Notes: generated by a model from the letters alone, not told the origin. DNA of 64,000 nucleotides from a bacterium BMS3Abin15 (GCA_002923195.1 BDTH01000074.1:9081-73080), one strand, 5' to 3'; shown: positions 33,969-41,868, counted from the stretch's first letter. Made by a program: numbers and translations.

Positions 33969-34111
33969 CTGTTTCCTCCTTTATGTTGGGTTTATTTTGT
34001 AATGTACTACAACTGGATAATGTTACTGGTTTATCGCTTTTTTGTCAACTTTAGAGATATAAAAAATAGCCGTTAGGGGCTACTACGATTATGGTTAATT
34101 AAAATATTAAA

Positions 34112-34588
34112 TTATAGAATTAAAGGGAACAGCCCCAGTGCTAGTAGAAAGAAAATGAAAAATAGAAATTTATATATTTTTTGCGGAAGAGTTTCGTAGT
34201 TAGAAGAAATATTAACTATTGTATATATGGACATAAGCAATATAATGAACAGAAAATAGATAATGGCTATGTCTTGATAATGACTGGCCACCACTAGCCC
34301 GATTACATTAAAAACAAAGACATTGCCTATCGTATTGGTATGCCAGCCAAGATAATCCCACTTTTTTATTTCCTCTCTGCGATAGCCGATTTTCGAATAA
34401 GCTAGGGAAGAAACAAAAAGCAATGGCACTGCCAGAACTAATTGTAGTATAGCAATGTAGCTGAATTCCTCAGGGCCGTTGTTCCAGATAAAAGCGAAAA
34501 TAAAAATCAAAACGCCCATCATTATAGAGCTGATGTGCACTTTGGAAATCGCTTTCTCCGGGCTGGTTTTGAAAATATTCCTTGGCAT
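34112..34588 (-). CDS. Hypothetical integral membrane protein (158 aa, 4-5 TM); its 5' third is duplicated at 41362..41604
   Basis: ORF; near-identical N-terminal 65 aa occur in a second copy. Confidence 0.6.
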   Translation of the reverse strand: MPRNIFKTSPEKAISKVHISSIMMGVLIFIFAFIWNNGPEEFSYIAILQLVLAVPLLFVSSLAYSKIGYRREEIKKWDYLGWHTNTIGNVFVFNVIGLVVASHYQDIAIIYFLFIILLMSIYTIVNISSNYETLPQKIYKFLFFIFFLLALGLFPLIL

Positions 34589-34647
34589 ATTACTTTTTAA
34601 ATTTTACCACAAAACAAAAATAACCCTAACTGGGTTATTTTCTTGTC
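34410..34647. repeat. Direct repeat, left copy (5' part of membrane-protein gene + leader + terminator)
   Basis: Near-identical to 41420..41604 + 41740..41797. Confidence 0.7.
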
Positions 34648-34850
34648 GCAATTGCTGAACGAAGCTTGAACCTTTTTGAATAAAAAATGCTTGAACAGCT
34701 TCGCTACGGCTCGGGCGTGGCGGAATTGGAGGCCGTGCCAATTTCATTGGCGTGCCGTCTCTTTGTAATTTTTTATAACCCCCTCCTATCCATTTTTTTA
34801 TGACGTTTTTTTGGATGCGCTAGAGATTCTATTGGCATACAATTTGTCTT

Positions 34851-35957
34851 TTATGAATGAAACGCCGGATGTAGCTTTTTATTTAGCTCCATACGTTCAG
34901 CCAAATATCGTACGATTTCACAGTTTTTCTCGCATTTTCCCAATATATCACCTGTTTCATTAACTACTTGTCCGAGGCATCCCCCAGCACAATTATATAT
35001 GTATTTGCAATCACTGCATGTTTTTTTCTTTAAGTTTTCCACGCATCTTGAACGAACATTAGCTACTGCTTTTTCGTCATAGACAATAATGTCTTTTTCC
35101 GGAATATATTTTCCATAAATTAATTGTTGAAGTGGACCTGGGGAATATTCAGAACCCAATTGGGTAAAATCACAACATGAGACATATCCATCAGTGGTTA
35201 AATGTGGATTTGGAGTACAAGCCCTGCAAGCATGTCTTGTTTTTTCATCAAAATTAACGATGCACATTGTATTGTACCATACCCCAAGTTTTTTCGCTTT
35301 TTTATGAGCAATAAGAAAATTTTTGGCAAATTCAATAGGATCCCATTCAAAGACAGTGCTCGAATTATCATCGATCGGGGCAAATGCGGGAAGAACATTT
35401 ATATACTTTATGCCGATACTATGAAAATATCCTACTATTTCTGATTGTCTTTTCATTATTGGGGGTGTCAATGTGACCCTTGCTCCTGCCTGCATTGATT
35501 TCTGCTTGGAAAAATATTTAAGATTTCTTTCTACAATCTCAGAAGTTGGCTTTTTAGTTGCCGTTGGTCTTTGAATATCATGAACTTCAGCCGGTCCGTC
35601 GCATGAAACCCACAAAATATTTACATTTTTGGCAATCCACTTAGCTACTTTTTCCGAGAAGAAGCCATTGGTCTGCAATTCTACAGTTAATAAATTGTCT
35701 GCTTTCTTGTATGCATAATTTTTTATTTTTTTCATCAGTTCAAATTCCAATGTTGGCTCGCCAATGCCGTAAAATCTAATATGCCTACTGGCGTTATCCC
35801 TGAAAAAATCATCAATCCCTCGCTTGGAAAAATTGAAATCTAAAGATTGATGCTCTTTCTTAAGGTTTTGATTTTTATGCGTATAGCAATAAATGCACCT
35901 AAGATTGCATCTTGTTGATAAAAAGAAAGAAATCATTTGTTTTCTTACATGTGCCAT
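34851..35957 (-). CDS. Radical SAM enzyme with SPASM domain, anSME-like (anaerobic sulfatase-maturase family)
   Basis: CNLRCIYCY (CxxxCxxC), QTNGFFSEKVAKWIAKNVNILWVSCDGPAEVHDIQR, C-terminal Cys clusters CRAC...SCCDF...CSDCKYIYNCAGGC. Confidence 0.8.
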   Translation of the reverse strand: MAHVRKQMISFFLSTRCNLRCIYCYTHKNQNLKKEHQSLDFNFSKRGIDDFFRDNASRHIRFYGIGEPTLEFELMKKIKNYAYKKADNLLTVELQTNGFFSEKVAKWIAKNVNILWVSCDGPAEVHDIQRPTATKKPTSEIVERNLKYFSKQKSMQAGARVTLTPPIMKRQSEIVGYFHSIGIKYINVLPAFAPIDDNSSTVFEWDPIEFAKNFLIAHKKAKKLGVWYNTMCIVNFDEKTRHACRACTPNPHLTTDGYVSCCDFTQLGSEYSPGPLQQLIYGKYIPEKDIIVYDEKAVANVRSRCVENLKKKTCSDCKYIYNCAGGCLGQVVNETGDILGKCEKNCEIVRYLAERMELNKKLHPAFHS

Positions 35958-36019: not shown

Positions 36020-37363
36020 CTACTTGTATAAACCCTCTTTTAAGCGAGTTAGCAATTTATGAGTTTTCAGTCCAATTGTAGATTTGGTTCTCCAGCCCGA
36101 ACGATAAGTTGCTATCAGAAATTTTTTGCGCTCTCGCAATTCTTCTCTTGGCGGTAAAGTATCGTAAACATCCACATATCCATTTAAATCATCTTTTTTA
36201 AAGCGACTTAAAAAATAGGCTTGGTCTTGAAAAATACTACCGACACTTACATTAACTACCGTAGTTTTTTTAGGAATCATGTCAATCATTTCATTGGTGA
36301 TGAATTTTTCAGCGCCAACATGAGGCAAGTGGAAAGTTATAATGTCAGATTCGGTTAATATTTTTTCCAATGGCTTAAATTGAAGATTGTATCGTTTTTC
36401 AAGATCCGGATTTTGGCTTGTCGAATAATAGGAAACATCCATGTCAAATCCATCTCTGGCAATTTGTACAACTCTTCTGCCAATACGACCAAGGCCAATT
36501 ATACCAATTTTTTTATTCATCAATGATTCACCTGTCGGAATAATTTTAGCAACATCAACGACCGAAAGATAATTACCTTGATTAATTTTGTTTTTTATTT
36601 CTTCGCTAACTGATCTTGAGTCATAAATAATAACATGACTTTCTCTCAAAAAATTGTCTATGGGTCTATAGGCGATATTTAATGCATGTTGCAAGTCACT
36701 CAGGCTATAAATCGCATTCATATGAAAGCCATGACTGGCTATTTTAAATAAATCTTCTTTAAGATTATCATTTACCAACAAGCCGACGGTTAATCCTTTG
36801 AGTGTTTCTTCTTTAAACTCATCAGGACTGGTAATTTTTAATTTTCCAACTTTTACATATTCATGAATCCACGAACCTCTTAAATTATCTCGCCAATTTT
36901 TATTAAACTTTCTGACATCGTCGGTAATCTTGGCCATAATTTCTTCTTGTAAATGTCTCCGATTGTTCGTTGGTGTTAAGCCTAGGGCATTTTCATTATT
37001 CTTATAAAGCTGCAATAAACCGACAAATGCTAGTTCCGCAACCGAATCAGTTCCGTAATCAGGAATACTGGGAATGTGAAGGTTATGTTTTAGCGCATAA
37101 TCTTTATTAATTCTGTGTTCGAAAGCATGAGTCCAAAAGGCAATCGTCTTTAATTGAGGATTCTCGTCGATTACTTCATTCGGAATATCAACCCAGCAAC
37201 TTATAATGCAATCAGCACCTTTGACTCTTTCCAGCACCTCTTCTTCGGTTTCACAGGTATTATATTCGACTACTTCTTCCGCAATTTCATTTAATCGATC
37301 TCTGTGTTCGGGATAAAAGATAACCGAATCTAATACAACAATTTTTTTATATTTTTTATTCAT
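36020..37363 (-). CDS. D-isomer-specific 2-hydroxyacid dehydrogenase family protein, divergent (about 170-aa insertion between the catalytic and NAD domains)
   Basis: GIIGLGRIGRRV Rossmann motif; N-terminal catalytic-domain similarity. Confidence 0.65.
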   Translation of the reverse strand: MNKKYKKIVVLDSVIFYPEHRDRLNEIAEEVVEYNTCETEEEVLERVKGADCIISCWVDIPNEVIDENPQLKTIAFWTHAFEHRINKDYALKHNLHIPSIPDYGTDSVAELAFVGLLQLYKNNENALGLTPTNNRRHLQEEIMAKITDDVRKFNKNWRDNLRGSWIHEYVKVGKLKITSPDEFKEETLKGLTVGLLVNDNLKEDLFKIASHGFHMNAIYSLSDLQHALNIAYRPIDNFLRESHVIIYDSRSVSEEIKNKINQGNYLSVVDVAKIIPTGESLMNKKIGIIGLGRIGRRVVQIARDGFDMDVSYYSTSQNPDLEKRYNLQFKPLEKILTESDIITFHLPHVGAEKFITNEMIDMIPKKTTVVNVSVGSIFQDQAYFLSRFKKDDLNGYVDVYDTLPPREELRERKKFLIATYRSGWRTKSTIGLKTHKLLTRLKEGLYK

Positions 37364-37393
37364 AATGCTAATTATTGAATTGATTATTTAAGG

Positions 37394-37464
37394 AGGCGCA
37401 GGTAGGATTCGAACCCACATGCAGAGCTCTGCAAGCTCTGGTCTGACTACTTGACTACCGCGCC
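37394..37464 (-). tRNA. tRNA-Cys (anticodon GCA)
   Basis: Acceptor GGCGCGG/CTGCGCC, anticodon stem AGAGC/GCTCT, loop TTGCAGA, T arm GTGGG-TTCGAAT-CCTAC, discriminator U, 3-bp D stem. Confidence 0.8.
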
Positions 37465-37470
37465 ATATTT

Positions 37471-38949
37471 TTACGGATTGGAAATTAATCTTTTGGATAA
37501 AAGTATTGGAATATAACACGGAACAATTATATCTCTACCATCTTCCGCTTTCATTTCTTTGATCAAATCATTTTTTCTCATAATTTTTCCTGTAATTTCT
37601 TTCGCTTCATTTTCTACGATTAAATTCTGGAAATCTTTATCTTTTTTATTGATAGTAATCACATAGGGTATCCATTTTAAGTCCCCTGCTTTCTTTTTGA
37701 CATTATAATTAATTTTTCTATCATCTAAGTCAACCCTAAAATCTAATGAATTAAGTTCTTTTTCAAGTTTTTTAGCATTCTCCAAAGAATCATCATCACG
37801 AGTAATTATTCTGGCTTGTATCGGAGCAACCCAAAAAGGAAACGATCTAAAGCCGGTCCTTGTTTCTTTCTTAATTGCTCTGTCAATAAAAAAGTAGGCA
37901 GAACGTTCAATCGATGAGAATGGAAAAACGACATGCAATATGGAAACGGGTTTTTTAATACCACCCTTCGTTTTAAATTTCAAATCAAGTGAAAATTCCG
38001 AAGAACCATCATCCACAAGACATGTGGCGATTTCTACTGGCGATTTTAAGCTATCAAATACTTTATACTCAATATCAATTTTTACTCCATCTTTGCAACG
38101 GACATCTTCATAAACTGCCAACAAGATTGGCTTGTTTATAGATTTGACTATTGTTTTTAAAAAATCAAAATTTTCTTTTAAGAAATCCTGTGTCATACTG
38201 CATAATAATTCATATTCTGGATCAAATTTCTCTATTTCATTTAATATTTTTGTATGTGCAGCTAATGCTATTTTTATTGACGACATTATATCTGCATTGA
38301 TAACATCGAGTTCTGGTATGCTAAAGCTTCTAACTCTTTTACATAATTGTAGCTCTTTTTCTTCTTCAAACCTGTAGCTCTTGGATATTTCGAAAAAACC
38401 AATTGGAAGACCTTTGTCATGAAGATTAATCCCTTTTGCTATTGAAAGTTTTTGCATACAAGCGTTATATCTTAATATTCGATTCTTTTTATTGATAACG
38501 ACATCGTATTGATTTAATCCATATAGCCCGGGATTTTTAGAAATTATCGCGATTTGCTTTTTTACTTCTGGAACATTGACATCAAGTAACTCTCCTCCAC
38601 CAACTTTATATAGTGGAATATCTTGATCATCGCTAAATTCTTTAACAACTAGCCAACTATACTTTTCTATTGCCTCCATGACAGTTGTAGCGTGTTGTAT
38701 TTGTCTCATATGTCCAGGCTCCGATAATGGATCCCATTCAAAACCCATTTCATTAATCATTTTATTAAGTTTGGTTTCTCGATCCTTAAATTTATGATTT
38801 TTTAAAAAACACTCGCTATCCACAAGTGATTTTAAACAAACTTCGGTTTTATCAAATTTATAATCATCCACAGGTGTAACTGTGGAGGACGAATCCAGTA
38901 TATAATATTTTTTATCAGAATGACTTTTTTTAGACTTTCTTATAGACAT
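37471..38949 (-). CDS. Class II aaRS-like protein, ThrRS-family paralog with degenerate active site (second zinc His missing); retains anticodon-binding domain
   Basis: YNACMQ (Cys ligand), motif-2-like SKSYRFEEE...RVRSFSIPELDV (no His), anticodon-binding FPFWVAPIQARIIT...DFRVDLDDRKINYNVKKK...IPYVITIN. Confidence 0.65.
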   Translation of the reverse strand: MSIRKSKKSHSDKKYYILDSSSTVTPVDDYKFDKTEVCLKSLVDSECFLKNHKFKDRETKLNKMINEMGFEWDPLSEPGHMRQIQHATTVMEAIEKYSWLVVKEFSDDQDIPLYKVGGGELLDVNVPEVKKQIAIISKNPGLYGLNQYDVVINKKNRILRYNACMQKLSIAKGINLHDKGLPIGFFEISKSYRFEEEKELQLCKRVRSFSIPELDVINADIMSSIKIALAAHTKILNEIEKFDPEYELLCSMTQDFLKENFDFLKTIVKSINKPILLAVYEDVRCKDGVKIDIEYKVFDSLKSPVEIATCLVDDGSSEFSLDLKFKTKGGIKKPVSILHVVFPFSSIERSAYFFIDRAIKKETRTGFRSFPFWVAPIQARIITRDDDSLENAKKLEKELNSLDFRVDLDDRKINYNVKKKAGDLKWIPYVITINKKDKDFQNLIVENEAKEITGKIMRKNDLIKEMKAEDGRDIIVPCYIPILLSKRLISNP

Positions 38950-38995: not shown

Positions 38996-39046
38996 TTTAA
39001 AAAAAGGGACAGGAAACAATACTGTGTTCCCGTCCCTTTTTCTTTT
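38996..39046 (-). terminator. Rho-independent terminator between the two ThrRS-like genes
   Basis: gggacaggaaaca-atac-tgtgttcccgtccc stem with flanking A/T runs. Confidence 0.55.
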
Positions 39047-40450
39047 CTAACGAAAACGAGGCTGCTTTGAAAGAAGGCTGGGCCAACTTAGTGGCTCAAA
39101 AGGTTTGTCTCCCTGAAGTTGATCGAGGTTTTGGGAAAACTCGGATTCCTTCATTTCCTTTTGTCCAGAAATTCCTCGTTCTCTCACAGCGATGGCCTGA
39201 TTCTCGAGTTCCTTATCCCCAACCATACCAACAAATGGCACCCAATTGACTTCTGCCTCCCGTATTTTGTACCCAACAGTCTCCTTGCGATCATCGATTT
39301 CCACCCTTGCCCCTATCTTTGAGGCAATTTCCTGACAACGCAAAATATGTCTGTCGGCTACAGGTATCAAGCGAACCTGAGTAGGACATAGCCAGTATGG
39401 AAACTTGGCAACTTCTCCTTTTTGTATTCTCCTTGCCTGTAGCTCCAAAAGAGCATACAGATTGCGATCTATAGACCCGGAGATTGATGCATGGAGAAGT
39501 AGGGGGCGTTGCTGTTTGCCATCCTTGTCAACATAGTTAATATCGAACCTCTCTGCATTCTCAACATCGATTTGCACAGTGGAAAGAGCGGCCGCTTTCT
39601 TTTGCCCATCAATCACGTTAAATTCAAACTTAAGGACAAAATAAAAGAACCTTTCTTTCCATACCTCGAGCAATACTGGACGCCCGAAATCCTTAACGAT
39701 TTCCATAACAAAGTCGCGGTTTTTTTGAAAGAAATCATCAACAACTCTTATTGCCATAACATGGTTGAGTTCGAGATCGCTCATCCATCTCTTACAAAGA
39801 AGATATTGCTGATAAAATTCTTCCTTGGCTTGCTCCACATCAACACAAAGAGAATGCATATCGGGCATCGTAAATACCCTCAGACGCCTCAATCCAGCCA
39901 ATTCCCCCGCCTGCTCCCTGCGAAATGAATAATGGGTCAGTTCGTAAATCTTCACTGGTAAATGATGATAGCTAATCCCCATATCATGCATGATCAGATA
40001 CTGTCCAAAGCAAGCAGCAAAACGAAGAAAATACTTCTTATCTCCACTTAGCAAATAGTATTGCCTTGCCGGAAAGCGTTTCAGATAGCTTGCCAGTTGT
40101 GGATGTTTAAGATCATACATAACTGGACTTTCAACCTGTATGCCACCATAGTCCTTTACAATTTCAGAAGCATGTCTTTCCATAAGGCGCTTGATTAAGT
40201 GTCCCTTTGGCAACCAACGAAAATTGCCAGAATCAGCAGCTGGTTCATAATCAACCAACTCCATTTGTTGCATCATCTTCACATGAGCAGGCGCTTCCTT
40301 CACCTCCCTCGAGCCAGAGCTTTCGTACGAATAAAAAACCTTCAAATCTTCACTCCCTGCCCATTTGAATTTCTCTACCTTAATAATTGATCCATCGGGT
40401 GAAACAATCAACCACTCCGATTTTGGCTCTTCTTCTTGTTTTGCACCCAT
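39047..40450 (-). CDS. Threonyl-tRNA synthetase-like catalytic core + anticodon-binding domain, lacking TGS/editing N-domains (ORF extends to 40588; RBS AAGGAGG supports start 40450)
   Basis: All three ThrRS zinc ligands are aligned: AACFGQ, MPDMHSL, LLLHASISGS. Motif 2 is FRREQAGELAGLRRLRVF. Anticodon-binding region is KFPYWLCPTQVRLIPV...GARVEIDDRKETVGYKIREAEVNWVPF. Confidence 0.75.
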   Translation of the reverse strand: MGAKQEEEPKSEWLIVSPDGSIIKVEKFKWAGSEDLKVFYSYESSGSREVKEAPAHVKMMQQMELVDYEPAADSGNFRWLPKGHLIKRLMERHASEIVKDYGGIQVESPVMYDLKHPQLASYLKRFPARQYYLLSGDKKYFLRFAACFGQYLIMHDMGISYHHLPVKIYELTHYSFRREQAGELAGLRRLRVFTMPDMHSLCVDVEQAKEEFYQQYLLCKRWMSDLELNHVMAIRVVDDFFQKNRDFVMEIVKDFGRPVLLEVWKERFFYFVLKFEFNVIDGQKKAAALSTVQIDVENAERFDINYVDKDGKQQRPLLLHASISGSIDRNLYALLELQARRIQKGEVAKFPYWLCPTQVRLIPVADRHILRCQEIASKIGARVEIDDRKETVGYKIREAEVNWVPFVGMVGDKELENQAIAVRERGISGQKEMKESEFSQNLDQLQGDKPFEPLSWPSLLSKQPRFR

Positions 40451-40608
40451 CGCCCTTCCTCCTTTATTCGTTTTTAATGTGCTCTTCAAAGAATTATTCT
40501 TTGAAACATTATATTGTATATCAGAAACTTGTTTATTGTCAATTCTTTTATTTTTTTTCATATGCTTCCTTGAATAATTATTTAACACTTATTTTTATAC
40601 TTGTATAT

Positions 40609-41346
40609 TTATCTGAGGCTGTAACCGCCATCAACAACAAGTAATTCGCCGGTTATAAAACTTGCATCACTGGATGCCAAAAATAAGACGGCTTTTGCAA
40701 TTTCGTCAGGTTCAGCAGATCGCTTGAGTGGAGTTTGCTGTTCGAAGAATTTTATAACCCTCTTTCCAGCTTCTTTTGTCATGTCAGTCATTACATTGCC
40801 CGGAGCGACAGCGTTTATGCGAATATTAGGAGCCAACTCTTTTGCAAATGCCTTTGTCATTGTAATTATTCCTCCTTTTGCTGATGAATATGCCAATACG
40901 GATGCAGCGCCAAGAAAACCATATATGGATGAAATATTGACAATGGATCCACTTCCATTTCTTGTCATAATTGGCGAAACTTCTCTTATCATCAACCATG
41001 CACTGGTTAGATTAATATCCATAGTTGCATGCCAAATTTTTTCGCTTGATTTCCAATTGCCTTCTCTAAAAATAACCCCGGCATTATTCACAAGTATGTC
41101 AATCTTGCCAAATTTTTTTATTGTTTCAGACACAAGGTGCTTTACATCTTCTTCCTTAGAAACATCTGCCTGAATAAAAATAGCTTTGTTTTTTCCAATA
41201 GCATTTACAACTTTTTTTGCATCTTCTGTTTGATCTTTGCAATTAATAACAACCCTTGCACCCTCTTTAGCAAAAAGAATGGCCGTTGCTTTTCCTATGC
41301 CTCGTGATGATCCTGTAATAATTGCAACTTTATTTTTTAGTTTCAT
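40609..41346 (-). CDS. Short-chain dehydrogenase/reductase (FabG-like)
   Basis: TGSSRGIG, NAG, S-YxxxK (YSSAKGG) motifs. Confidence 0.85.
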   Translation of the reverse strand: MKLKNKVAIITGSSRGIGKATAILFAKEGARVVINCKDQTEDAKKVVNAIGKNKAIFIQADVSKEEDVKHLVSETIKKFGKIDILVNNAGVIFREGNWKSSEKIWHATMDINLTSAWLMIREVSPIMTRNGSGSIVNISSIYGFLGAASVLAYSSAKGGIITMTKAFAKELAPNIRINAVAPGNVMTDMTKEAGKRVIKFFEQQTPLKRSAEPDEIAKAVLFLASSDASFITGELLVVDGGYSLR

Positions 41347-41361
41347 AAATATAGGACTTTT

Positions 41362-41604
41362 TTATTTGATCAAATCATTAACGCTAACGCCCAATCCCTT
41401 GGCTATTTTTGAGTAGGCAAGAGTGGAAACAAATAAGAGGGGGATTGCTAAAACCAGTTGGAATATAGCAATACGACTGAGTTCGTCAGGGCCGTTGTTC
41501 CAGATAAAAGCGAAAATAAAAATCAAAACGCCCATCATTATAGAGCTGATGTGCACTTTGGAAATTGCTTTCTCCGGGCTGGTTTTAAAAATGTTTTTAG
41601 GCAT
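41362..41604 (-). pseudogene. Truncated duplicate (first ~65 aa) of membrane-protein gene 34112..34588 with a 15-aa unrelated tail
   Basis: MPKNIFKTSPEKAISKVHISSIMMGVLIFIFAFIWNNGP... is identical or near-identical to the other copy, then diverges. Confidence 0.5.
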
Positions 41605-41739
41605 ACCCTGTAGTAGAAATTCAAATGGGCTTTGCCCAAAATGAACTAATTATTTACTTAAAATTTATTTTTAATTAAAAACCCTGCCCCATGTACTCCC
41701 TTAATACTCCGTAACTTTTGAATTTTCACTACGGGGCAT
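41605..41739. mobile_element. MITE-like insertion, 135 bp, with ~20-bp terminal inverted repeats (ccctgtagtagaaattcaaa / tttgaattttcactacgggg)
   Basis: Present in the right repeat copy, absent from the left. Inserted exactly at the start codon; CAT is duplicated at both ends. Confidence 0.55.
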
Positions 41740-41762
41740 ATTACTTTTTTAAATTCTACCAT

Positions 41763-41790
41763 AAAACAAAAATAACCCTAAATGGGTTAT
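41763..41790 (-). terminator. Rho-independent terminator after tRNA-Pro (ataaccc-attta-gggttat + U-run)
   Basis: Same structure is present in the left repeat copy (34611..34640). Confidence 0.6.
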
Positions 41791-41797
41791 TTTTTTG

Positions 41798-41868
41798 TCG
41801 GGGCACTGAGAATCGAACTCAGCCTACATGGTCCCAAACCAAGCGTACTACCAATATACGATGCCCCG
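41798..41868 (-). tRNA. tRNA-Pro (anticodon UGG)
   Basis: C1-G72 pair and A73 typical of bacterial tRNA-Pro; anticodon loop TTTGGGA with G37; T arm CTGAG-TTCGATT-CTCAG. Confidence 0.85.

Follow-up and report, generated by a model that had tools for sequence, protein, structure and literature searches.

A threonyl-tRNA synthetase of archaeal type without editing domain, encoded in a repeat-flanked gene cassette of Candidate Phyla Radiation bacteria

Results and discussion

Gene A and its expression signals

The DNA under study is a stretch of 64,000 nucleotides of bacterium BMS3Abin15 (GCA_002923195.1 BDTH01000074.1:9081-73080), referred to as the window. Its minus strand carries a gene, termed A (Table 1), that very probably encodes a functional threonyl-tRNA synthetase (ThrRS), as judged from family membership, conserved residues, and modelled fold. 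Gene A is located in a cassette of approximately 6.7 kb that is flanked by direct repeats and that comprises, in minus-strand order, genes for a short-chain dehydrogenase/reductase (SDR), A, a second ThrRS-like enzyme (B), a tRNA-Cys, a dehydrogenase-like protein, and a radical S-adenosylmethionine (SAM)/SPASM enzyme.

A first line of evidence concerns the family to which protein A belongs. It exceeded the cutoffs of the NCBIfam models NF003068 (archaeal-type ThrRS; 599.3 bits, cutoff 484, profile positions 143-612) and TIGR00418 (thrS; 405.3 bits, cutoff 383.65) and of the Pfam models tRNA-synt_2b (class II core; 71.6 bits, cutoff 29.3) and HGTP_anticodon (55.4 bits, cutoff 21). This agrees with the ThrRS catalytic and anticodon-binding domains recognised in a preliminary description of the sequence, and the peptides quoted there (FRREQAGELAGLRRLRVF, HASISGSIDRNLYALLE, KFPYWLCPTQVRLIPV, KIREAEVNWVPF, AACFGQ, MPDMHSL, and LLLHAS) were all found in the translated open reading frame (ORF). 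The class IIa anticodon-binding motif DDR...KIRxAE was present too, and DDRKETVGYKIREAE was conserved. Secondly, the residues required for catalysis were retained. Indeed, in a phmmer alignment with the ThrRS of S. aureus (1nyq; E 3.9e-40), the three proposed zinc ligands (Cys of AACFGQ, His of PDMH, and His of LLLHAS) fell on the corresponding residues and the motif-2 and motif-3 arginines were aligned, so that the loss of catalytic residues considered in the preliminary description did not occur. Similarly, R177, E179, D197, H199, H320, and R329 were invariant and C147 was nearly invariant in an alignment of 27 sequences, and the equivalents of Asp383, Tyr462, Lys465, Thr482, and Gln484 of E. 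coli were kept in A, its orthologues, and archaeal ThrRS. Thirdly, an AlphaFold2 model of A (pLDDT 87.3, pTM 0.88) had its best Foldseek matches in the PDB among ThrRS structures comprising the catalytic and anticodon-binding domains (TM-score up to 0.84), yeast mitochondrial MST1 being one of them. In addition, approximately 65 orthologues of A, 63-95% identical, occurred among bacteria of the Candidate Phyla Radiation (CPR), which indicates purifying selection. The enzyme is presumably active on the tRNA(Thr) of its host.

The longest ORF at the locus (39047-40588, minus strand; 513 amino acids), reported before and indeed present in the sequence, starts with GTG. The true start of A is almost certainly not this codon but the ATG at position 40450, as had been proposed on account of a ribosome-binding site: AAAGGAGG is located upstream of it, and the orthologues (466-467 amino acids) start at the same residue. 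The in-frame stretch upstream of this ATG counts 46 codons, is bounded by a stop codon, and is followed further upstream by the SDR gene. These 46 codons are very probably non-coding, as they contain a promoter-like site, TTGACA-18-TACAAT, the best sigma-70-like site that a consensus scan (consensus match only) returned on the minus strand between positions 34000 and 42000. At the other end, the rho-independent terminator described earlier (38996..39046) was recovered as a hairpin plus U-tract at 38999-39043 (dG -25.7 kcal/mol, z -6.9). A hairpin and U-tract are found at the same place after A in eight related loci (numbered L001, L002, L013, L020, L021, L022, L023, and L039), where the stems differ in sequence and show compensatory changes. 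No riboswitch or T-box was found upstream of A, even at a permissive threshold. Given the strong and conserved terminator and the lack of a detectable riboswitch or T-box, A seems to form a transcription unit of a single gene within its gene cluster.

Loss of the editing domain and ancestry of A

The N-terminal archaeal editing domain (PF08915; positions 1-142 of NF003068) is absent from A. As the alignment with NF003068 covers only positions 143-612, some 140 residues are missing, and a tblastn search with five archaeal and three bacterial ThrRS editing domains revealed none in the 64-kb window, which supports the absence noted in the preliminary description. Neither was a bacterial-type thrS found in the window. 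That A would be a full-length thrS with a wrongly assigned start is ruled out by the 46-codon upstream stretch with its promoter-like site, the starts of the orthologues, and the tblastn result, the window being free of similarity to editing domains. The claim that an extension of about 70 residues replaces the lost domains had to be abandoned, as the N-terminal 55-70 residues or so of A align with positions 143 to approximately 210 of NF003068 and with full-length archaeal proteins. In archaeal enzymes, this conserved part connects the editing domain with the core; in A, it was modelled as a folded subdomain (pLDDT of about 95).

Close relatives of A form approximately 65 protein-database clusters, all of about 466 amino acids and without an editing-domain Pfam match, the named hosts being Moranbacteria, Parcubacteria, and Patescibacteria. 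One orthologue is annotated as threonine--tRNA ligase by NCBI. The next-best matches were full-length archaeal ThrRS with PF08915 (54-58% identity). Metagenome loci 48-55% identical to A were full-length likewise, L070 being an apparent exception: its archaeal-type thrS (L070:9530-11410) contains the editing domain and the core in a single frame that is broken by one in-frame stop (KQKDI*TYRAPFGW), which could be a sequencing error, a pseudogene mutation, or a recoded stop. In a neighbour-joining (NJ) tree, a distance tree in which no crenarchaeal ThrRS-cat sequences were included explicitly, the A clade falls within the full-length ThrRS of euryarchaeal type. By sequence, A is thus of archaeal ancestry and belongs to a CPR-only clade of editing-less proteins. 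The best explanation is that CPR bacteria took the gene from a euryarchaeal-type lineage and that the N-terminal editing domain was lost since. Because of the position of the clade among euryarchaeal-type full-length enzymes, this loss appears to be independent of that in crenarchaeal ThrRS-cat. Archaeal aminoacyl-tRNA synthetase (aaRS) genes are known to have moved into CPR bacteria and to have replaced the bacterial ones in the case of TyrRS and TrpRS (PMC5370408). Viral contigs carrying A were not found, and plasmid-borne relatives were limited to generic thrS matches below 30% identity. As to annotation, A-type genes are no evidence that the only thrS of a genome lacks editing.

Composition and mobility of the cassette

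The preliminary description, made at the level of the gene, was right about a ThrRS core without editing domain; the repeat-flanked cassette, conserved in other CPR genomes, had gone unseen. The features of the cassette are listed in Table 1. Counts of cassettes given below come from fragmentary metagenome contigs.

Table 1. Features of the cassette in the window, with positions counted from the first nucleotide of the window
Feature	Position	Strand	Description
ThrRS A	39047..40450	-	467 amino acids, archaeal-type; catalytic core and anticodon-binding domain, no editing domain
Ribosome-binding site of A	40458..40465	-	AAAGGAGG, 7 nt 5' of the ATG at 40450; read directly from the sequence
Promoter-like site of A	40513..40542	-	TTGACA-18-TACAAT, 11/12 consensus matches; upstream of A, inside the over-long GTG ORF
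Intrinsic terminator of A	38999..39043	-	GC-rich hairpin 39006-39036 and U-tract 38999-39005
ThrRS-like B	37471..38949	-	492 amino acids, divergent paralogue; core and anticodon-binding domain, no editing domain
SDR	40609..41346	-	245 amino acids, first cassette gene; Pfam adh_short_C2, 229 bits
tRNA-Cys(GCA)	37392..37464	-	ARAGORN; Rfam 51.2 bits; 6 nt after the stop of B, 28 nt before the next gene
2-Hydroxyacid-dehydrogenase-like protein	36020..37363	-	447 amino acids; Pfam 2-Hacid_dh_C, 94 bits
Radical-SAM/SPASM enzyme	34851..35957	-	368 amino acids; Pfam Radical_SAM; NCBIfam PapB-like and anSME-like, below cutoff
Left direct-repeat copy	34389..34648	.	5' part of the intact membrane-protein gene (34112-34588) and its upstream hairpin
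Right direct-repeat copy	41405..41800	.	Truncated copy of the membrane-protein gene (41362-41604, minus strand) and 3' flank of tRNA-Pro (41797-41868)

Across the loci, the conserved core of the cassette consists of B, the SDR, the dehydrogenase-like protein, and an oxidant. The SDR gene is present in every complete B cassette. The oxidant is either the SPASM radical-SAM enzyme, which in the window matches 5wgg and 4k37 in the PDB and has no N-terminal peptide-recognition extension, or a TauD-family dioxygenase that takes its place in L007 and L011. The dehydrogenase-like protein is the best-conserved component, with 60-73% identity where B reaches only 35-42%. It keeps the NAD(P)-binding GxGxxG motif and contains an insertion of about 100 residues; the canonical catalytic Arg/Glu/His are absent, as a comparison with glyoxylate reductase (2dbq) showed SVG where ARG is expected and no Glu at the EEP position. 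Such conservation in spite of a lost triad suggests a new activity or a non-catalytic role for this protein.

The tRNA-Cys gene of the cassette also occurs in L001, L002, L012, L013, L017, L018, L020, L021, L023, L031, and L039. It is always located directly upstream of the dehydrogenase-like gene, even in L031, in which the gene order is rearranged. It resembles an ordinary bacterial tRNA-Cys (GGCGCG acceptor stem, U73, and GCA anticodon), with either G or A at position 37 depending on the copy. A CysRS gene is absent from the window. A role as universal partner of B is not supported for this tRNA, as it is confined to 12 loci of one subclade and missing from the more distant cassettes of L007, L009, L011, and L016.

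Concerning its borders, the cassette is enclosed by repeats of two families, D1 (201 nt, 84% identical) and D2 (55 nt, 93% identical), the right copy being interrupted by approximately 140 nt of unrelated sequence. Duplicated in the repeats are the sequence that flanks tRNA-Pro on its 3' side and the 5' third of the membrane-protein gene, of which the upstream copy is truncated. This arrangement looks like a single-crossover integration of DNA from a related strain. A cassette of about 91% identity is found in L020 and L023, where homology ends at positions 34719 and 41409 and the flanks differ, and in L001, L002, and L017 the cassette has still other neighbours. Judged from these different flanks, the cassette behaves as a mobile unit. 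Larger versions (L002, L009, L015, L017, L018, and L021) contain additional HemN-like (class C) and B12-binding radical-SAM enzymes, together with a conserved protein of 302-319 amino acids without Pfam or NCBIfam match, and may also include a methyltransferase or a major facilitator superfamily (MFS) transporter. An MFS transporter is located at the edge of the L017 cassette, and an SBF-family transporter was found in L016.

A phage or defence origin of the cassette was rejected. Besides the lack of viral contigs with A, none of the PADLOC defence-system models matched the cassette proteins, the only similarity being that of the generic radical-SAM core to pVip (43 bits). Similarly, a cluster for a ribosomally synthesized and post-translationally modified peptide was rejected, as inspection of the intergenic gaps of the window, which was not exhaustive, revealed no small ORF that was conserved and precursor-like, and the SPASM enzyme lacks the N-terminal recognition extension. 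Nothing directly relevant was found in the literature on ThrRS paralogues in CPR bacteria or on the cassette.

The second ThrRS-like enzyme

The gene following A had been described as ThrRS-like, and B indeed matches NF003068 and has a ThrRS fold in its AlphaFold2 model (pLDDT 83.5). Its NF003068 score (295 bits) is below the cutoff of 484 and covers profile positions 146-610, hence no editing domain is present, and its score for the Pfam core (20.5 bits) is below cutoff as well. B belongs to a small, CPR-only family of approximately 40 proteins of 35-86% identity. The residues Cys164, Arg193/Glu195, His339, and Arg349, representing the zinc Cys, the motif-2 Arg/Glu, the second zinc His, and the motif-3 Arg, respectively, are invariant in this family. 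The family differs by Glu for Asp383, by Cys plus a three-residue insertion for Tyr462, and by an altered DDR...KIRE anticodon-binding motif. In addition, the subtype found in the window contains Asp instead of the zinc ligand His385, resulting in a Cys/Asp/His rather than a Cys/His/His site, and Leu for Gln484. As the adenylation residues and two of the zinc ligands are invariant and the pocket and anticodon-binding motif are remodelled, B seems to be an active adenylating enzyme in which the substrate pocket, and probably also RNA recognition, has changed. A dead pseudo-enzyme is ruled out by the invariance of the zinc Cys and His and of the motif-2 and motif-3 arginines across 23 sequences. 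A recent duplication giving rise to A and B is ruled out too, as both proteins are 21% identical and have different archaeal sister groups, B being sister to Bathyarchaeota-type ThrRS in the NJ tree.

Linkage of the cassette to ThrRS genes

A ThrRS gene adjoins 13 of the 14 B cassettes with usable flanks, L016 being the exception. This ThrRS is of three origins. Gene A adjoins the cassette in nine cases (the window, L001, L002, L013, L017, L020, L021, L023, and L031), and contigs of equal length in the A and B protein tables suggested six further co-occurrences of both genes. In L011, an independently derived, editing-less copy of archaeal type is adjacent. Finally, the neighbour is a bacterial thrS (582-598 amino acids) in L007, L009, and L018; L002 and L017 have this gene next to the cassette as well as A. 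As gene order and orientation of cassette and ThrRS gene vary among the loci, the linkage has outlived rearrangement. In L002 and L017, A and a bacterial ThrRS of 582-589 amino acids occur on the same contig, the latter with intact HxxxH and CxxxH editing motifs and typical of hundreds of Patescibacteria ThrRS. A is accessory rather than the sole copy in these relatives, and the genome from which the window derives probably contains a bacterial thrS too. In L009, a bacterial thrS heads the B cassette, and approximately 1.1 kb upstream of this gene ARAGORN detected a tRNA-like gene of 92 nt (L009:250-341, plus strand) of which the anticodon is GGU (Thr) and the variable arm is long; its minimum-free-energy fold has an acceptor stem of only 5 bp (z -2.9), and the gene may encode an unusual class-II-like tRNA or be a pseudo-tRNA.

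Gene A also occurs apart from the cassette. In L003-5, it is found without cassette beside toxin-antitoxin and IS110 genes. In L022 (L022:1-1872), A (91% identical) and its terminator are followed by only the first 90 nt or so of B and then by unrelated genes, apparently representing a decayed cassette of which A alone was kept. In L006, L025, L026, L034, and L035, belonging to Parcubacteria lineages, A lies beside other SPASM radical-SAM genes, indicating a recurrent association with radical-SAM enzymes even when B is lacking. These neighbours (L006:8849-9907, L034/L035:944-2002, and those in L025 and L026) are radical-SAM/SPASM proteins of 352-366 amino acids that are NirJ/AhbD-like, below cutoffs. 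With its promoter-like site, conserved terminator, and stand-alone occurrences, A seems to behave as an autonomous, portable unit.

Threonine content of A

A protein that has to be made while one aminoacyl-tRNA is scarce is expected to contain little of the amino acid concerned. Protein A of the window contains five threonine residues out of 467 (1.07%). Compared without phylogenetic correction, the mean threonine content of the A clade (2.1%) is lower than that of the archaeal sister cores (3.8%; Mann-Whitney p 2e-14), and B-linked copies of A (1.45%) contain less threonine than unlinked ones (2.25%; p 0.005). Threonine amounts to 3.5% in bacterial ThrRS, 5.1% in window ORFs of at least 200 amino acids, 3.3-5.4% in the other cassette proteins of the window, and 2.3-6.0% in the cassette proteins of L002 except A. 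Such a depletion is expected for an enzyme that must be translated under limiting Thr-tRNA.

Possible role of A

The reading favoured here, with a probability of roughly 0.45 and thus tentatively, is that A is an accessory back-up or immunity ThrRS tied to the chemistry of the cassette. A would keep producing Thr-tRNA(Thr) when that chemistry makes Thr-tRNA(Thr) scarce. Two routes to such scarcity, which the cassette presumably causes, may be envisaged: a threonine-like product or intermediate would block the housekeeping bacterial ThrRS or be mischarged by it, or the cassette pathway would drain threonine or Thr-tRNA. In either case, the archaeal-type, threonine-poor A would sustain translation. 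This role is favoured because A and a bacterial thrS coexist in L002 and L017, because A has its own promoter-like site and terminator and outlasts the decay of the cassette, and because of its threonine depletion and the near-constant adjacency of cassette and ThrRS gene. In addition, there are precedents: ObaO is a second ThrRS copy that provides self-immunity (PMC11252418), and translation-fidelity genes serve as markers of gene clusters for threonine-analogue synthesis (PMC13149037). If true, this role would imply a threonine-analogue or ThrRS-directed metabolite from organisms thought to be nearly without secondary metabolism, and A would be a naturally inhibitor-insensitive ThrRS.

Several observations weigh against a back-up or immunity role. 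The bacterial ThrRS adjacent to the cassettes are ordinary at Tyr462, Gly463, Gln484, and position 489, and most of them are not depleted in threonine; for cassettes without A, use of ThrRS or Thr-tRNA by the cassette accounts for the facts no less well than poisoning of ThrRS. Concerning threonine content, the contrasts ignore shared ancestry, the A-like copy of L011 is not depleted (4.1%), and low-threonine copies of A occur without visible B on the short or decayed contigs L022, L025, and L026. Furthermore, A is found in housekeeping surroundings, namely beside an rRNA operon in L030 and beside a class II synthetase of the D/K/N type (AspRS/AsnRS-like) in L035, and could be the main ThrRS of these lineages. 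Finally, none of the cassette enzymes scores above a curated family cutoff, and no product or inhibitor is known for the cassette.

The main rival explanation, unlikely as it is, considers A as a dedicated supplier that feeds aminoacyl-tRNA(Thr), and perhaps also Ser-tRNA(Thr) for want of proofreading, to a tRNA-dependent chemistry of the cassette. Dedicated aaRS copies are known from tRNA-dependent pathways, for instance VlmL in valanimycin biosynthesis. As either a bacterial ThrRS with editing or an archaeal one without editing can accompany the cassette, the product of ThrRS may be what the cassette needs; ordinary bacterial thrS genes stand beside A-less cassettes, and editing-less archaeal-type copies were recruited at least two times independently (A and the A-like gene of L011). 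The cassette also has a tRNA-centred theme, with a tRNA gene and an aaRS-derived ligase. However, an aminoacyl-tRNA-dependent transferase (Fem/GNAT-type, cyclodipeptide synthase, or LanB/PEARL-like) was not recognisable among the cassette proteins scanned, a second supplier would be redundant in L002 and L017, where a bacterial thrS is already adjacent, and both the threonine depletion of A and its survival alone after cassette decay are left unexplained. A supplier role, if true, would make the cassette point to new tRNA-dependent chemistry.

Going beyond the back-up or immunity role, a wider and doubtful proposal is that the cassette represents a new ThrRS-centred pathway, in which B activates a tailored threonine-like compound and A is the immunity enzyme of the producer. 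B would then descend from an archaeal ThrRS and act as a zinc-dependent ligase, its pocket and anticodon-binding motif being remodelled, and its substrate would be made or tailored by the SDR, the dehydrogenase-like protein that lacks the triad, and a C-H oxidant of either kind, radical-SAM/SPASM or TauD. B might load this compound onto a tRNA, for which the co-encoded tRNA-Cys comes first to mind. Such a pathway would yield either an antimetabolite directed at ThrRS or a non-canonical aminoacyl-tRNA, and the editing-less, threonine-poor A would spread alone as a resistance gene.

A rather improbable alternative is xenologous replacement, whereby A would be the housekeeping ThrRS of this bacterium, the bacterial thrS would have been lost, and the location in the cassette would be incidental. 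It would accord with the lack of a bacterial thrS in the window, which is only a small part of the genome, with the housekeeping neighbourhoods of A in some CPR lineages (L030 and L035), with the replacement of bacterial TyrRS and TrpRS by archaeal ones in CPR bacteria (PMC5370408), and with the NCBI label of the orthologue mentioned above. However, among large contigs that carry this cassette, the closest ones (L002 and L017; A 70-82% identical) retain a canonical bacterial thrS, and the position of A between diverged direct repeats, with a copy of about 91% identity between other flanks, would be odd for the sole copy of an essential gene.

More improbable still is a stress back-up independent of the cassette, in which the cell would turn to A as its ThrRS when starved for threonine, limited in zinc, or under oxidative stress. 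Stress-type duplicates of ThrRS are exemplified by cyanobacterial T2 and by ThrZ of B. subtilis. The threonine depletion of A suits expression under threonine limitation, A has its own promoter-like site, and T2 provides the precedent of a second ThrRS used at low zinc (PMC9437257). However, such a back-up would not explain why B cassettes are found time and again next to ThrRS genes of three origins, no T-box or riboswitch is located upstream of A, and its zinc ligands are the ordinary Cys/His/His; zinc- or stress-back-up models have no specific support. Lastly, a split ThrRS of crenarchaeal style, with A as the catalytic half working with a separate editing protein, is suggested by the ThrRS-cat architecture and the second ThrRS-like gene after A, yet it is effectively excluded, as B (profile positions 146-610) has no editing domain, no archaeal or bacterial editing domain is detectable in the window, and A nests, in the NJ tree, in a euryarchaeal and not a crenarchaeal clade, with 21% identity to B.

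Comparison with known systems

A shares most with the full-length euryarchaeal ThrRS (NF003068/PRK03991), to which it is homologous end to end over core and anticodon-binding domain (54-58% identity, 599 bits), including the zinc ligands, the linker subdomain, and the C-terminal tail. It differs by the lack of the DTD-like PF08915 domain of approximately 140 residues, which all archaeal relatives at 48-58% identity possess, by its occurrence in a mobile cassette of CPR bacteria, and by about half the threonine content.

The resemblance to crenarchaeal ThrRS-cat put forward in the preliminary description holds for the architecture, not for the lineage, which is euryarchaeal in the NJ tree, nor for a free-standing editing partner, which is lacking in the window. 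Like the pair of ThrRS-cat (ThrRS-1) and ThrRS-ed, the locus encodes a catalytic ThrRS without cis editing domain and a ThrRS-like gene nearby. However, A comes from another lineage with an independent domain loss. ThrRS-ed contains the editing domain next to a degenerate catalytic site, whereas in B the editing domain is missing and the residues for adenylation and zinc binding are retained. Similarly, yeast mitochondrial MST1 (3ugq, 4eo4, and 4yye) consists of the core and tRNA-binding domain only (TM-score of about 0.8; PMC4267643), but it is 22-24% identical to A and is a sole organellar enzyme without cassette context.

The resemblance to BorO and ObaO that had also been put forward was not upheld. 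ObaO is a second full-length bacterial ThrRS, of which the resistance rests on G463S and L489M (PMC11252418). A belongs to a different, archaeal-type lineage and is therefore no member of this group: it lacks the N-terminal domains, its local sequences FFY-FVLK and QIDVENAE are those of its archaeal relatives, and it has Asn at the position of L489. No inhibitor is known for its cassette, in contrast with ObaO/BorO. The likeness lies in a second ThrRS beside biosynthetic-looking genes, coexisting with a housekeeping copy in L002 and L017, and an immunity-like role of A is plausible on grounds other than likeness to ObaO. The cassette-adjacent bacterial ThrRS were considered as ObaO-like resistant variants as well, which found no support at Tyr462, Gly463, Gln484, or position 489, their editing motifs being intact; at the sites associated with resistance to obafluorin and borrelidin (PMC11252418), they resemble the remaining ThrRS of Patescibacteria. 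Among bacterial-type ThrRS of Patescibacteria, a set that included the five cassette-adjacent copies, the position of E. coli Leu489 is occupied by Met in 116 of 125 sequences, a Leu-to-Met exchange also present at this site in ObaO (PMC11252418), and 124 of 125 retain Gly463.

Cyanobacterial T2, which produces Ser-tRNA(Thr) under low zinc (PMC9437257), and stress-induced duplicate aaRS in general resemble A as alternative enzymes alongside a housekeeping one. However, A is a xenologue and not a duplicate, is tied to a conserved enzyme cassette, and shows no evidence of zinc regulation. Pairs of an aaRS paralogue and a tRNA (ProRSx-tRNAProA) and aaRS-derived ligases (MshC and aa:CP ligases) compare with B rather than with A. 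Like the ProRSx-tRNAProA type (PMC9437257), B is aaRS-derived, keeps the adenylation residues, and is immediately followed by a tRNA gene, but this tRNA looks like an ordinary tRNA-Cys and is missing from distant B cassettes. Altogether, editing-less ThrRS, as in Crenarchaeota and yeast mitochondria, and extra ThrRS copies for immunity would be combined here in ultra-small CPR bacteria.

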